Source: a virus (Duplodnaviria; Heunggongvirae; Uroviricota; Caudoviricetes). From it: a stretch of 4,254 nucleotides of DNA. The notes below the pieces were generated by a model. It made no database searches. It saw only the letters and a program-made list of their open reading frames with translations, and was not told where the DNA came from. Where the stretch lies: IMG/VR virus record IMGVR_UViG_2531839233_000010; one strand, 5' to 3'. Positions 1 to 4,254 of the stretch are shown here, piece after piece; the stretch's first letter is position 1, and each line of letters begins with the position of its first letter. Both the position numbers and the translations under genes were made by a program.

Positions 1-1
1 A

Positions 2-166
2 TTACCTGTGACGGTAAAACTGCGCCTGACTGTGGCTGCACTCCTGCTGTTTCTGGTGGTGATGATGGATTTCACCAGCAGGATAATGTTGGTACTGACT
101 GATGGCGCTCTGGTCTGCGGCATTGTGGTATTGCTGTGGCCGATGATGAAAGAACAGAATGAATAA
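2..166 (+). CDS. 3' end of an upstream ORF (partial, start outside window); very hydrophobic C-terminus, product unknown
   Basis: Open frame from the window edge to TAA at 164-166, translating to ...LTVAALLLFLVVMMDFTSRIMLVLTDGALVCGIVVLLWPMMKEQNE with many CTG Leu codons. A second open frame (1-111, ...CDGKTAPDCGCTPAVSGGDDGFHQQDNVGTD, stop TGA 109-111) is also possible, so the frame is uncertain. By position a Q-type antiterminator gene would be expected here, but I cannot confirm that. Confidence 0.3.
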   Translation, partial: LPVTVKLRLTVAALLLFLVVMMDFTSRIMLVLTDGALVCGIVVLLWPMMKEQNE

Positions 167-169
167 TTC

Positions 170-196
170 TTGACTTTTTTGTTTACTGTTTATTAA
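170..196 (+). promoter_or_regulatory. Candidate sigma70 late promoter (pR'-like)
   Basis: TTGACT at 170-175 (same -35 hexamer as lambda pR'), 15-bp spacer, TATTAA at 191-196. It starts 4 bp after the upstream stop and sits about 175 nt upstream of a strong terminator, the geometry of lambda pR'-6S RNA-tR'. The short spacer and imperfect -10 keep confidence modest. Confidence 0.35.
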
Positions 197-352
197 AAAA
201 TCAACCGCATGGTGAATCCTCCTTGGAGGGGCTAAATGATCGAGTTTTAAGGGCACGTAGCGAGTTCTGTTTGATCATTGCAGAACTTAGCGGGAGGCGC
301 CATGCGTACATCACTAATGTTATTTCCTTCTATCATTTTCCTTGTGAGTTCT

Positions 353-379
353 GGCTGCGCATGGCGCGGCCTTTTTTTT
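353..379 (+). terminator. Rho-independent terminator (tR'-like, end of late leader transcript)
   Basis: Stem GGCTGCGC (353-360) pairs with GCGCGGCC (364-371): 8 bp including one G-U, loop ATG, followed directly by eight T (372-379). Confidence 0.7.
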
Positions 380-560
380 ATGACCTGCCACTGGCAGATG
401 GTCATCCTGTGATTTGATTCCGGTTCCGGCTTTTTAACTCTGTTCCTGTACACGGGAGAAATTCTATGTCGATTAATCGTTATGATATTGGTTACAAGAA
501 GTACCACGTATTGTGTTGAGATAGAAAGCATGGTGCCAGAGGTAAATGCAGCAGCATAAT

Positions 561-608
561 AAAAAAGAGCCAGCGCAGAAGAGAACGGGTAAAAGAGTCT
601 GCGCTGGC
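561..608 (-). terminator. Candidate rho-independent terminator for minus-strand transcription
   Basis: Perfect 11-bp inverted repeat GCCAGCGCAGA (569-579) / TCTGCGCTGGC (598-608) with an 18-nt loop. On the minus strand the hairpin is followed by TCTTTTTTATTAT (complement of 556-568); no T-tract follows on the plus strand. Confidence 0.45.
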
Positions 609-659
609 GTGGGGATATTCCCCGTGGAGAAATGATATGTAACACACATCGGGAACCTT

Positions 660-687
660 TCTATATAAACATTATCATTATTGTCAA
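660..687 (-). promoter_or_regulatory. Candidate minus-strand promoter facing the 561-608 terminator
   Basis: Minus strand reads TTGACA (complement of 682-687, perfect -35), 16-bp spacer, TATAGA (complement of 660-665). The -10 lacks the conserved final T, so this is weak. It would give a roughly 90-nt transcript ending at the 561-608 terminator. Confidence 0.25.
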
Positions 688-787
688 TCATAACAGTCAG
701 GTATTATGACGTTTATGCATCAGGGCCATCAGGAATTAACTGGTGGCTTTTTATTGTTGTCAGCTTCCGGATAACGGGAGACGGGGT

Positions 788-1003
788 ATGTACCAGATGG
801 AAAAAATAACAACAGGTGTGTCATACACCACGTCAGCGGTGGGGACGGGATACTGGCTACTGCAGTTGCTGGACAAAGTCTCCCCATCCCAGTGGGTGGC
901 AATAGGCGTATTGGGTAGCTTGGTGTTTGGCTTGCTGACGTATCTGACAAACCTTTATTTCAAGATTAAAGAAGATAAGCGTAAGGCTGCGAGAGGTGAA
1001 TAA
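788..1003 (+). CDS. S: Class II holin, phage 21 S21 pinholin family (71 aa; alternative start at 797 gives 68 aa)
   Basis: ORF ending TAA 1001-1003. Translation [71 protein letters not shown] closely matches the phage 21 S21 pinholin as I recall it (two TMDs, ...[21 protein letters not shown]-terminus). GGGAG at 776-780 lies 7 nt before ATG 788. Met1 and Met4 form a dual-start motif. The 743 start in the ORF track is upstream of the SD and unlikely. Confidence 0.9.
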
Positions 1004-1500
1004 TGTCGCCATCATTACGCAAGGCTGTTGCTGCTGCTATTGGTGGTGGGGCTGCTGCCATAGCGTCTGTGCTCATCACTGGTCCGAGTGGTGACGATGG
1101 CCTGGAAGGTGTCAGCTACATACCATACGAAGATATCGTTGGCGTATGGACTGTATGTCACGGACACACCGGAAAAGACATCATTCCCGGTAAAACGTAT
1201 ACCGAAGCAGAATGCAAAGCCCTCCTGAATAAAGACCTTGCCACGGTCGCCAGACAAATTAACCCGTACATCAAAGTCGATATACCGGAAACAACGCGCG
1301 GCGCTCTTTACTCGTTCGTTTACAACGTGGGCGCTGGTAATTTCAGAACATCGACGCTTCTTCGCAAAATAAACCAGGGTGATATCAAAGGCGCATGTGA
1401 TCAGCTACGGCGCTGGACATACGCTGGCGGTAAGCAATGGAAAGGGCTGATGACTCGCCGCGAGATTGAGCGTGAAGTCTGTTTGTGGGGGCAACAATGA
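1003..1500 (+). CDS. R: SAR endolysin (phage 21 R21-like, T4-lysozyme-type muramidase with N-terminal signal-anchor-release domain)
   Basis: 165 aa. N-terminal Gly/Ala-rich weakly hydrophobic segment ([20 protein letters not shown]) typical of a SAR domain. Lysozyme catalytic triad at the expected spacing (E35, D44, T50 in ...[23 protein letters not shown]...). Start ATG 1003-1005 overlaps the holin stop (TAATG). Confidence 0.93.
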
Positions 1501-1964
1501 GCAGAGTAACCGCGATTATCTCCGCTCTGGTTATCTGCATCATCGTCTGCCAGTCATGGGCGGTTAATCATTACCGTGATAACGCCATCGCCTATAAAGA
1601 ACAGCGTGATAAAAAAGTCAGTGAGCTGAAGCAGGCGACCGCCACCATTACTGACATGCAGCAGCGCCAGCGTGCTGCTGATGCACTCGATGCTAAATAC
1701 ACGAAGGAGTTAGCTGATGCGAAAGCTAAAAATGATGCTCTTCGGCGCAAGCTTGATAATGGTGGTCGGGTGTTCGTCAAAGGAAAATGCCCTGTGCCAT
1801 CCTCAGACGAAACCTCCAGCGCCTCCGGCATGGGCAATGATGCCACCGTCGAACTCTCTCCAGTTGCTGGACGAAACGTTCTCGGTATCCGGGACGGAAT
1901 TATCCGCGACCAAACAGCACTGAGAACGCTTCAGGAATACATCAGGACGCAATGCCTTCGATGA
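1497..1964 (+). CDS. Rz: Rz inner-membrane spanin (i-spanin)
   Basis: 155 aa from ATG 1497 (overlapping the endolysin stop TGA 1498-1500 as ATGA). N-terminal TMD ([15 protein letters not shown]) followed by a charged coiled-coil-like periplasmic domain. The 5' nucleotide sequence is near-identical to lambda Rz as I recall it. The ORF-track start at 1485 is a GTG extension. Confidence 0.9.
1717..1923 (+). CDS. Rz1: Rz1 outer-membrane lipoprotein spanin (o-spanin), embedded in +1 frame within Rz
   Basis: 68 aa: [44 protein letters not shown]... Signal peptide with lipobox VVGC and a Pro-rich mature region, as in lambda Rz1. AAGGAG sits 7 nt upstream of the ATG. Entirely nested inside Rz in a different frame. 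Confidence 0.85.
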
Positions 1965-2138
1965 TAGCGATAATTTTACTCATCATCCTTCACATCTGGC
2001 TCTGTAGACAGGGTGGTGCTCACTTCTGGAGTGAATCATGGTTAAACATCTCATTGCTGATGCTTGATATTGAGCATCTGGCGCGCGGTAAGGGGCTGCG
2101 TTGAGATAAGAGCCAGTCATTAAAAATACCTGGATTTA

Positions 2139-2162
2139 GCCTCGCATTCGCGGGGCTTTTTT
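2139..2162 (+). terminator. Rho-independent terminator downstream of the lysis cassette
   Basis: Stem GCCTCGC (2139-2145) pairs with GCGGGGC (2150-2156): 7 bp including one G-U, loop ATTC, followed by TTTTTT (2157-2162). Confidence 0.6.
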
Positions 2163-2174
2163 ATTGCCATTACA

Positions 2175-2200
2175 AAAGCCACTCCCTACAGAGTGGCTTT
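2175..2200 (-). terminator. Hairpin, possible weak terminator for minus-strand transcripts
   Basis: Perfect 10-bp inverted repeat AAAGCCACTC (2175-2184) / GAGTGGCTTT (2191-2200), 6-nt loop. The GC-rich core is flanked by an A-run on the left and T-run on the right, so the minus-strand RNA has the hairpin followed by UUUUGUAAU. Lies 13 bp after the plus-strand terminator. Confidence 0.35.
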
Positions 2201-2298
2201 GATAATGGCTTATACCCTACACGGGATAACTTAACTGATATCCCTTTTAACGGATAAAGGTATTCAAGCCTGACACATCATGCGCTGTATCGTCGCTG

Positions 2299-2363
2299 TA
2301 TTCCCGCATTAACCATGACCGTAGCCCGACGGGGAACTCCTTCTGCGCGAGTGTGCGGGAATA
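2299..2363. other. Long-range inverted repeat / structured element in the Rz-cos intergenic region
   Basis: TATTCCCGCA (2299-2308) is the exact reverse complement of TGCGGGAATA (2354-2363), enclosing a 45-nt GC-rich segment (2309-2353). The surrounding 2295-2460 stretch resembles, from memory, a lambda segment located between bor and cos. Confidence 0.4.
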
Positions 2364-2589
2364 ATCAAAAACGATGCACACCGGGTTTTTACCGCGCTAA
2401 TGATTCGCGGGTTTGTCCCTCATGCTCGCCAGTCCTGTGCGGGGGTGGAAGAAACAGGACACTCACACAGATTCTTGTGGGTCGATGCTATTCCTTTCTG
2501 GATTATCCCGATGCCATTCATGCAAGGGCTGTATCAGACGTTCGTCATGGCTTTCAGGCTGACGGCTCCTCCCGGTGGGGTGGCCTGCC

Positions 2590-2609
2590 ACGGGGCGGGA
2601 GCGTCGCGG
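2590..2609. other. Candidate cosN (terminase nicking site); predicted 12-nt cohesive end GGGCGGGAGCGT at 2593-2604
   Basis: ACGGGGCGGGAGCGTCGCGG matches the lambda cos context ACG|GGGCGGCGACCT|CGCGGG at the 9 left and 6 right flanking positions, with the central bases differing. It lies about 175 bp upstream of the Nu1-like gene start, as in lambda (cosN to Nu1 ATG about 190 bp). Confidence 0.5.
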
Positions 2610-2622
2610 AAAAAGGCTAGTT

Positions 2623-2665
2623 TTTGCATTTTTATCGGCCACCATCATCTTTGCATCTTATTGAT
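2623..2665 (+). repeat. Direct repeats TTTGCATYTT(T)AT, candidate cosB-like small-terminase binding elements
   Basis: TTTGCATTTTTAT (2623-2635) and TTTGCATCTTAT (2650-2661) lie 27 bp apart in the AT-rich stretch between the candidate cosN and the small-terminase gene. Confidence 0.3.
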
Positions 2666-2778
2666 TATTAATGGTTATTTGTTTTTTGTATGTCGAATTG
2701 AGTGTTTTTTGTTCGACATCGAACGCGTTTTCTTAAAGTTGTTCGCACGATGCATGTTTAAAGCTCTCCGGAGGAAAT

Positions 2779-3270
2779 ATGGATCATGAGTTGAAAAACC
2801 TGGTGCTGAATATTAATCAACTGGCGGCTTTATCTGGTCTGCACCGCCAGACTGTCGTGGCAAGACTGAAAAACATTCGTCCCGCTGGTGGACATGACAA
2901 ACTCAAGCTATACCGGTTGACCGATATTCTGACTGAATTTATGGGGTTACCACCGCCGGTTGCTGAGGGCGAAATGGATCCACATGAACGCAAAGCCTGG
3001 TATCAGTCTGAACGTGAGCGTCTTAAGTTCGAACAGGAAACGGCACAACTCATTCCGGCCAGTGATGTCAGACGGGAGTTTGCCATCTGGGCAAAAGCGG
3101 TCGTGCAGGTGCTGGAGACATTACCGGATATTCTGGAACGTGACTGTGGTCTGCAGCCTGCCGCTGTGAGCCGTGTTCAGTCCATTATTGATGATCTGCG
3201 CGATCAGATAGCCCTGCGGGTGACCGAAGCAGGTGCGGATGATGAGGAGGAATTACAGCAGGAGGAGTAA
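2779..3270 (+). CDS. Terminase small subunit (Nu1-like DNA packaging protein, N-terminal HTH)
   Basis: 163 aa. GGAGG at 2767-2771 lies 7 nt before ATG 2779. The N-terminus LNINQLAALSGLHRQTVVARL follows the lambda Nu1 helix-turn-helix pattern (VNKKQLADIFGASIRTIQNW), and the C-terminus is acidic. Position is immediately upstream of the large terminase with a TAATG overlap at 3268-3272. Similarity to Nu1 is by pattern, not high identity. Confidence 0.7.
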   Translation: MDHELKNLVLNINQLAALSGLHRQTVVARLKNIRPAGGHDKLKLYRLTDILTEFMGLPPPVAEGEMDPHERKAWYQSERERLKFEQETAQLIPASDVRREFAIWAKAVVQVLETLPDILERDCGLQPAAVSRVQSIIDDLRDQIALRVTEAGADDEEELQQEE

Positions 3271-4254
3271 TGCTGAATCAGGAAACCGCAAAGGCAGCAC
3301 GAACCGATTCAGGTTATATCCTTCGCGCACCGAGACGAATGCGGGTTGCTGATGCCGTTGCTCAGTATATGCGGGTGCCCATGGGGGCCGGGAACTCAGT
3401 CCCGTGGGATCCGCTGGTGGCACCGTATGTTATTGAGCCGATGAACTGCCTGGCCTCGCGTGAATACGACGCAGTGATATTTGTTGGCCCGGCACGAACC
3501 GGCAAGACTATCGGCCTGATTGACGGCTGGGTGATTTACAACGTGATTTGCGATCCTGCGGATATGCTGATCATTCAGATGACGGAGGAAAAAGCCCGCG
3601 AACACTCCAAAAAACGACTCGCCAGAACGTTTCGCGTCAGCCCGGAAGTGGTCAGTCGCCTGAGTCCGAACAAAAATGACAACAACGTTTATGACAGAAC
3701 ATTCCTTGCTGGCAACTACCTGAAAATCGGCTGGCCGTCAGTCAATATCATGTCCTCATCAGATTATAAATGCGTGGCGCTGACGGATTATGACCGTTTT
3801 CCGGAAGATATTGATGGCGAGGGGGATGCCTTCTCTCTTGCCTCAAAACGTACCACCACATTTATGTCCAGTGGTATGACGCTGGTGGAGAGTTCCCCCG
3901 GCAGGGATGTGAAGGATGTGAAATGGCGACGGACTTCACCGCATGAGGCTCCACCAACCACGGGGATACTGTCGCTCTATAACCGTGGCGATCGCCGTCG
4001 CTGGTACTGGCCCTGTCCACACTGTGGTGAGTATTTTCAGCCCTGCGGCGATGTGGTTGCTGGTTTCCGTGATATTGCCGATCCCGTGCTGGCAAGTGAG
4101 GCGGCTTATATTCAGTGTCCTTCCTGTTCAGGACGGATTATGCCTGAACAAAAACGTGAGCTGAACGGACGTGGGGTCTGGTTGCGGGATGCTATCACCC
4201 GTATGCTGATGCGCATGATGGGTATCAAAACCGATATCGTGGTTAGCGGCTCTT
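3270..4254 (+). CDS. Terminase large subunit, lambda gpA family (partial; 3' end beyond window)
   Basis: Uninterrupted frame from ATG 3270 to the window end (328 codons, checked codon by codon; not in the supplied ORF track). Walker A P-loop VIFVGPARTGKT. Cys cluster WPCPHCGEYFQPCGD...CPSCSG resembles the gpA zinc-finger-like motif (lambda ...ACPHCGEE...). Confidence 0.9.
   Translation, partial: MLNQETAKAARTDSGYILRAPRRMRVADAVAQYMRVPMGAGNSVPWDPLVAPYVIEPMNCLASREYDAVIFVGPARTGKTIGLIDGWVIYNVICDPADMLIIQMTEEKAREHSKKRLARTFRVSPEVVSRLSPNKNDNNVYDRTFLAGNYLKIGWPSVNIMSSSDYKCVALTDYDRFPEDIDGEGDAFSLASKRTTTFMSSGMTLVESSPGRDVKDVKWRRTSPHEAPPTTGILSLYNRGDRRRWYWPCPHCGEYFQPCGDVVAGFRDIADPVLASEAAYIQCPSCSGRIMPEQKRELNGRGVWLRDAITRMLMRMMGIKTDIVVSGS

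Follow-up and report, generated by a model that had tools for sequence, protein, structure and literature searches.

We found that positions 2564-2778 of the stretch of DNA analysed here (4,254 nucleotides from a Caudoviricetes virus record, henceforth the window) very probably form the cos region of a lambdoid prophage, with the elements arranged as cosQ-cosN-I2-cosB, and that in this copy the region is most likely a relic. The packaging module to which it would belong is of the type known from mEp460, cdtI, Fels-1 and Gifsy-2, i.e., a DUF1441-family small terminase subunit combined with a large subunit of the gpA family. The overhang variant itself is already known: natural cosN variants of this class have been catalogued before, and deposited phage genomes have the very same ends. 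The individual elements and the neighbouring genes are listed in Table 1.

Table 1 Predicted genes and packaging elements of the window in order of position; offsets (+) count from the first base of the predicted overhang
Feature	Position	Strand	Basis
Class II (P21-type) holin, first lysis-cassette gene upstream of cos	788..1003	+	Pfam Phage_holin_2_1, E = 1.1e-32; RefSeq annotation in O157 counterpart
Endolysin (lysozyme RrrD-type)	1003..1500	+	Pfam Phage_lysozyme, E = 1e-45; annotated in O157 counterpart
Rz spanin	1497..1964	+	Pfam Phage_lysis, E = 2.4e-28
Rz1-like lipoprotein ORF embedded in Rz, other frame	1717-1923	+	...VVGC lipobox-like motif
cosQ-like heptamer GGCTCCT	2564..2570	+	6/7 match to GGGTCCT (G>C at 2566); ends 22 bp before the top-strand nick
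cosN core, CG + 12 bp + CG	2591..2606	+	Unique match; predicted nicks 2592/2593 (top) and 2604/2605 (bottom)
Predicted 12-nt 5' cohesive end GGGCGGGAGCGT	2593..2604	+	AB285204.1 and OV696610.1 begin with the same 12 bases
I2-like A/T-rich segment CGCGGAAAAAGGCTAGTTTTTGCATTTTTAT... between cosN and cosB	2605..2642	+	2605-2625 nearly invariant in 99 unique relatives
IHF-like site AATCAATAAGATG, candidate I1 analogue	2654..2666 (+62..+74)	-	12/13 match to WATCAANNNNTTR
Perfect 8-bp inverted repeat ATGTCGAA-N14-TTCGACAT, candidate cosB element for small-terminase binding	2690..2719 (+98..+127)	.	Repeat search
Small terminase, DUF1441 family, N-terminal HTH	2779..3270	+	Pfam DUF1441, E = 4.6e-44; ATG at +187
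Large terminase, N-terminal 307 codons only (gpA ATPase domain)	3270..4191	+	Pfam GpA_ATPase, E = 1.4e-72
yfjD fragment, not part of cos	4189..4254	+	100% identical to the chromosomal gene; 66 bases joined to the truncated terminase ORF

The preliminary description had proposed a lambda-like cos site that keeps both flanks and differs from lambda at four positions of the overhang, and both points hold. Specifically, ACGGGGCGGGAGCGTCGCGG occurs once in the window (2590-2609, + strand) and reads as ACG-GGGCGGGAGCGT-CGCGG, with flanks ACG and CGCGG that are the same as in lambda. Compared with lambda bp 1-12 (GGGCGGCGACCT), the overhang is changed at positions 7 (C>G), 8 (G>A), 9 (A>G) and 11 (C>G), all differences being confined to bp 7-12, while the left half and both flanking CG dinucleotides are present (CG-GGGCGG-N6-CG at 2591-2606). 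The 16 specified bases, ACGGGGCGGNNNCNTCGCGG, matched the window once even when one mismatch was allowed, and dinucleotide-preserving shuffles of the window contained no match (0/200; chance expectation 0.00). When the right and left ends of lambda were joined and aligned with the window (alignment A1), the similarity proved real and extended past 2590-2609: a cosQ-like heptamer, the CCGGTG after cosQ and a GCTA in the I2 segment were common to both. The cosQ, I2, their spacing and the order of the genes (lysis genes, cos, small terminase, large terminase) are likewise lambda-like.

We examined the genes on either side of this region by means of Pfam and pairwise protein comparisons. About 800 bp of mostly non-coding DNA, with one small ORF for a hypothetical protein (1952-2104), separates Rz from the DUF1441 gene, whose start codon lies at nearly the same distance from the overhang as that of lambda Nu1 (+187 vs. 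+191). The terminase genes had been described as diverged members of the gpA/Nu1 type, which is correct for the large subunit but not for the small one. The first 307 residues of the large terminase clearly belong to the gpA family (E = 1.4e-72) while being 23% identical to lambda gpA and 77% to the large terminase (TerL) of cdtI. By contrast, the small terminase matches DUF1441 as its only Pfam family and lambda Nu1 matches Phage_Nu1 (PF07471); BLASTP of the window protein against Nu1 produced no alignment. DUF1441 proteins are annotated as terminase small subunits in mEp460, Ayreon, phi458, Gifsy-2 and Fels-1, and the window protein is 42% identical to the small terminase of cdtI. Judged by sequence, the DUF1441 subunit is thus a positional and functional analogue of Nu1 and not a member of its family.

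The large terminase ends prematurely in the window. Its full-length homologue in O157 (700 aa) has both a GpA_ATPase and a GpA_nuclease domain, and the window protein is without the latter because of the junction with yfjD. This junction was absent from complete E. coli genomes and, in an exact search, from GTDB representative genomes; near position 4191 there may be either a real rearrangement or an artefact of the assembly or of the window.

The next elements to be considered were the packaging signals around cosN. The lambda cosQ, GGGTCCT, is said to have been placed at bp 48473-48479 by Wieczorek and Feiss in 2001. All of cdtI, Tritos, mEp460_4F5, PhiR40_1 and lambda have this heptamer in alignment A1, and among 78 related loci it was found in 71/78, the other 7/78 having GGCTCCT as in the window. 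These seven loci are 99.4-100% identical to the window, and the variant is limited to such loci. The Feiss laboratory saw no apparent natural variation in cosQ (PMC4669245). The simplest reading of this single G>C substitution, found as it is in a lineage that no longer functions, is decay; a lineage-specific change in cosQ fits a defective prophage whose packaging signals are degenerating, without amounting to proof of it.

Downstream of cosN, the I2-like segment is common to phages in which the following cosB and the small terminase diverge (e.g., cdtI and Tritos); in lambda, I2 spans about bp 18-50 (PMC4856287). A scan of the window alone for the IHF consensus was not significant (3 sites found vs. 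4 expected). The IHF-like site is meaningful because its position is conserved among relatives: a perfect consensus on the same strand was present at +62 or +64 in 51/99 unique related cos sequences. The inverted repeat further downstream is accompanied by a third related copy, GTTCGCAC, at 2741-2748. It is perfect in 21/99 unique relatives, and the TGTCGA near +99 is kept across the family (99 unique relatives); Gifsy-2, whose small terminase is 48% identical, has GTGTCGAA-N14-TTCGACAC from +99 after its CCACG. We found no clear equivalent of R3 when searching +50 to +65 and could define no convincing R3-R2-R1 triplet in cosB. Both the IHF-like site and the inverted repeat are hence treated here as candidate cosB elements.

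How these elements vary was assessed in two surveys of IMG/VR. In the first, 80 loci were collected through the small-terminase protein, so that the sample is unbiased as to the DNA site; the cos core was present in 78/80. Within 99 unique related cos sequences, cosQ, CCACG-GGGCGG, the CGCGG flank and AAAAAGGCTAGTTTTT were nearly invariant, with the cosN flanks and left half kept in all 99, and the spacer between cosQ and cosN and the right half of the overhang were variable. Such a pattern would be expected of functional islands. The overhang GGGCGGGAGCGT itself was found in 53/89 unique sequences with the window's type of I2. In the second survey, the search pattern fixed cosQ, the flanks and the left half, any right half being allowed, and there were at least 129 matches. 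The overhangs among the 129 matches listed were GGGCGGCGACCT (74), GGGCGGGAGCGT (21), GGGCGGCGCGCT (10) and eight other variants that made up the rest, making the window's overhang the second commonest of lambda type among the matches listed.

Some IMG/VR contigs carried more than one such site. In IMGVR_UViG_2574179916_000005 (1-11983) a segment of 12 kb holds three cos sites of the window's type. The first lies in a prophage whose small terminase is of the DUF1441 family and whose TerL breaks off at aa 331; next comes an element that encodes an integrase, a primase/helicase-like protein and an SSB and has its own cos (8231), as well as a ClpP-capsid fusion gene, the third cos (10767) and a DUF1441 paralogue. 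This element looks like a capsid-forming satellite of the PICI type that uses the same type of cos as the window. In six other IMG/VR contigs, lambda-type cos sites occur as inverted pairs separated by 330-880 bp, and in every pair a GGCCGGAGAAATCCGGC-T-run hairpin comes before one of the two sites; here a satellite (PICI) cos possibly adjoins another cos.

We also scanned the window for other features. Between 1950 and 2800 there were no promoter-like sites and two terminator-like hairpins, one of them being the right arm of the cosB repeat, and an Rfam scan gave sub-threshold matches only, none at cos. One of these, to the sRNA STnc100 (177-382, + strand; 37.7 bits vs. a gathering score of 47), is located upstream of the holin gene, about where the leader of a late operon would be. 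Two long ORFs on the + strand (2315-2620 and 2400-2789) cross cosQ, cosN and cosB, and the PhiR40_1 counterpart of the cos-spanning ORF is annotated as a hypothetical protein (XSB42407.1); these are probably spurious gene calls across cos DNA. A full-text literature search for GGGCGGGAGCG returned only papers on G-quadruplexes, on primers and on other unrelated subjects.

The predicted nick positions could be compared with deposited genomes. The records of cdtI (AB285204.1) and Tritos (OV696610.1) start with GGGCGGGAGCGTCGCGGAAAAAGGCTAG and end with ...CTGCCACG (i.e., ...CCACG), and their first and last bases therefore coincide exactly with the nicks, which had been placed earlier from the window alone. 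This is strong but indirect support, as the starts of these records could have been chosen by analogy with lambda. Tritos is known to form virions and plaques (PMC9928086). Three further deposited complete phage genomes with named hosts (PhiR40_1, PhiR47_1 and PhiR55_1) are 99.5% identical to the window over 2588-2780, and the small terminase that they encode is the same as that of the window.

By analogy with lambda, the site may be expected to work as follows in functional relatives. The small subunit would bind cosB, probably at the TGTCGAA/TTCGACA repeats between +98 and +127, and IHF would bend the DNA near +62, anchoring the large subunit together with the cosB-bound small subunit. The large subunit would then nick the top strand at 2592/2593 and the bottom strand at 2604/2605, leaving 12-nt 5' ends (GGGCGGGAGCGT), with the top strand of the virion DNA predicted to start 5'-GGGCGGGAGCGTCGCGG and the other end to read ...CCACG. 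Packaging would proceed rightward from the terminase genes, and cosQ would assist in ending it when the following cos is reached. Changes in the overhang would affect the annealing of ends to one another but leave the choice of DNA by the terminase as it is, the specificity of recognition presumably residing in the small subunit and cosB.

The copy in the window does not appear to be such a functional relative. Over positions 42-4191 the window matches, at 99.9% identity, a prophage that many O157:H7 genomes carry, namely Sp3/CP-933K, which adjoins ybhC on the lambda attB side; the ends of the window (1-41 and 4192-4254) have no match to Sp3/CP-933K. Positions 1-41 are ~60% identical to O157 Sp3, and this looks like a mosaic boundary inside an ORF of the DUF3927 family (8-166), which speaks against O157 Sakai or EDL933 as the straightforward source. 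The Sp3 counterpart in O157 has a frameshifted integrase gene, a truncated bet and a split portal gene, and is without cI, O and P genes. Sp3 was found not to circularise, replicate or be packaged (PMC2669165), so that the prophage induction suggested as a test in the preliminary description would fail for the O157 counterpart. The cos of the window is thus most likely an unused relic, given the identity to Sp3/CP-933K, the G>C change in cosQ and the interruption of TerL after its ATPase domain.

Alternatively, the site may still function in trans. The DUF1441 terminase of a co-resident prophage, or the intact enzyme of the O157 prophage itself, would then nick it in situ and package the adjacent prophage and chromosomal DNA. 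We consider this unlikely. A suitable substrate would be there, since complete phage genomes have a cosN, I2 and cosB 99.5% identical to those of the window, and an enzyme may be at hand, since O157 strains retain a full-length TerL beside cos; moreover, prophages of strain Sakai were reported to make good each other's packaging defects, and for Sp4 DNA packaging through a shared putative cos has been proposed (PMC2669165). However, circularised, replicated or packaged Sp3 DNA was not detected in the same study, and lambda-type packaging terminates only at another cos that lies at the right distance and has a functional cosQ, and cosQ is altered here; in addition, the TerL of the window is truncated. 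We therefore retain the relic as the preferred reading of this copy.

A second question was whether the overhang diverged together with the terminase, as had been proposed from the diverged core and the diverged terminase genes. We found that the large terminases fall into two deep clades, that of lambda and that of the window. Among the matches listed, almost all loci of the lambda clade (69-100% identical to gpA) had the right half CGACCT together with a 23-bp spacing between cosQ and the nick and an I2 of the TTTTCGCTATTTATG type, whereas those of the window's clade (76-100% identical to the window's TerL) had a 22-bp spacing, an I2 of the AAAAAGGCTAGTTTTT type and at least eight different right halves. 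One locus among the matches listed is an exception, with CAGCGG beside a TerL that is 73% identical to lambda's. Within the window's clade, the same overhang occurs in cdtI with a TerL 77% identical, and other right halves occur with TerLs 79-82% identical. Lambda gpA, in turn, is only 23% identical to the window's TerL, yet the left half, the flanks and cosQ are common to both systems. Co-divergence hence stands for one part of the site and not for the other: in the sequences compared, cosB, I2 and the cosQ-cosN spacing co-vary with the type of terminase, but there is no such correspondence between the enzyme and the overhang's right half, as demonstrated by the cdtI match, the number of variants, Gifsy-1 (see below) and the CAGCGG locus.

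These data also bear on the claim that the window represents a packaging-specificity variant by virtue of its co-diverged core, which we did not find to be upheld: all the changes lie in bp 7-12, where they are tolerated, and TerLs that are 76-100% identical carry the eight or more right halves. Natural variation is common in bp 7-12, mutations there have minimal effect and C11G has no phenotype, and neither the lambda nor the N15 terminase exhibits cosN specificity in these positions (PMC4669245). Packaging specificity is instead attributed to the interaction of the small subunit with cosB (PMC4669245; PMC9026076). It is accordingly improbable that the four substitutions are a specificity determinant which co-evolved with the diverged TerL, such that the lambda enzyme and that of the window would not cut each other's sites. 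What such co-evolution would predict is partly seen, in that right halves of the GAGCGT type were found only with the non-lambda TerL clade and GGGCGGCGACCT only with TerLs 69-100% identical to lambda's (both among the matches listed), the two clades being so distant. The prediction nevertheless fails within the clade, where right halves vary freely between close enzymes and recur between more distant ones, and across clades, where Gifsy-1, with a lambda/21-type terminase, has an overhang (GGGCGGCAGCGT) one base from that of the window and where the one sampled CAGCGG locus has a lambda-like TerL; one of the four changes, moreover, is C11G itself.

We put forward, as a speculation that is unlikely to be correct, that right-half variants are not neutral drift but cohesive-end incompatibility groups, which would limit the annealing of hybrid chromosomes and their cyclisation among co-resident lambdoid prophages (e.g., in O157). 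As a separate part of the same speculation, the G>C change in cosQ of the Sp3 lineage would be a natural loss-of-termination allele within a TerL clade that is 23% identical to lambda's.

The length of the overhang needs to be considered as well. The mEp460_4F5 record (LR595868.1) begins 5 nt before the predicted nick, and it has 9 bp (GGGCGGGAG) instead of 12 between the ACG and CGCGG flanks; either its cohesive end is genuinely 9 nt long or cos was misassembled in this record. Gifsy-2 has CCACG-GGTGGCTTCGGGCT-CGCGG, i.e., its left half is non-canonical and its flanks are ~14 bp apart (690-760 of the retrieved locus), and both Gifsy-2 and Fels-1 have GGTACTCC where the canonical cosQ would be (in Fels-1 at about 600-720 of the retrieved locus). 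The DUF1441 clade therefore holds cos cores that are more divergent than that of the window, and a 12-nt overhang is not guaranteed throughout this clade, given the 9 bp of mEp460_4F5 and the ~14 bp of Gifsy-2. A real cos in the window whose cut positions or overhang length depart from the lambda-aligned 12 nt (e.g., 9-10 nt) would be in keeping with these cores and with the 9-nt end reported for Cr-LKS3 (PMC9303873). We nonetheless regard this as very unlikely, as 88/89 unique sequences with the window's type of I2 have precisely 12 bp between the two CG flanks, the termini of two deposited genomes fall on the 12-nt positions and the Feiss laboratory treats such ends as 12-nt.

Finally, that the likeness to lambda cosN is a chance resemblance with no role in packaging is hardly credible: the local GC richness (0.65-0.72 around cos) is all that speaks for it, against the absence of matches in shuffled sequence, the extension of the likeness to cosQ, spacing, I2 and gene order, and the strong islands of conservation in the 99 unique relatives. 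Two other modes of packaging, headful (pac) packaging and HK97-type 3' ends, were rejected in view of the gpA-family large terminase and the conserved cos islands.

Taken as a cos region, the site is of significance mainly for annotation, as it would give the ends of the virion genome for a large group of lambdoid prophages of E. coli and Salmonella, in which cos is often unannotated or covered by a spurious hypothetical-protein call. It also illustrates points that are already known, namely that cosQ, the left half of cosN and the flanks of the nicks stay constant across large terminases that are 23% identical while the right half drifts, and that specificity moves with the small subunit and cosB.

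How does the site compare with other known cos systems? A first comparison is with cdtI and Tritos, which have the window's sequence from the nick to about +35, including the 12-nt start GGGCGGGAGCGT, as well as the ...CCACG end, the cosQ spacing, a TerL 77% identical and a small terminase of the DUF1441 family. They differ from it in having the canonical cosQ (GGGTCCT), an unrelated cosB past about +35 and a small terminase that is 42% identical, and therefore their packaging specificity is probably different from that of the window. With lambda, the site has in common the GGGCGG left half, the CG flanks, the predicted 12-bp stagger, an A/T-rich I2 and an IHF-like site in cosB, along with a terminase operon ~190 bp after the nick, a large subunit of the gpA family and lysis genes upstream; the lambda cosQ heptamer is matched at 6/7 positions in the window and at 7/7 in its relatives. 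By contrast, the I2 and cosB sequences of lambda are unrelated to those of the window, its small subunit is of the Phage_Nu1 and not the DUF1441 family, its large subunit is 23% identical, its twofold symmetry is higher (10/16 vs. 8/16 bp) and its cosQ lies 23 rather than 22 bp from the nick.

The remaining systems combine these features in other ways. The overhang of Gifsy-1, GGGCGGCAGCGT, which the Feiss laboratory lists among the natural lambda-like variants (PMC4669245), differs from that of the window at position 7 only, and the CG flanks are common to both; unlike the window, Gifsy-1 has a Nu1/21-type small terminase, a TerL of the lambda clade and an I2 of lambda type, and its cosQ is canonical. 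The putative cos of mEp213 and LLS, GGGCGGCGCGCT, resembles that of the window in its TerL clade (79-81% identity), DUF1441 small terminase (~62%), left half, flanks, 22-bp cosQ spacing and type of I2, but not in the right half or in its shorter cosB (the small terminase starts at +130); the authors of the LLS/mEp213 work, citing Vahanian et al., call the 12-nt 5' overhang inferred or putative. The cyanophage Cr-LKS3 is distant in host and genome and has a 9-nt overhang (GGGCTCGCG), unlike the window, but its small terminase is also of the DUF1441 type (37% identity), and its reported 5' cohesive ends have the same two flanking bases and the same first four bases (PMC9303873).
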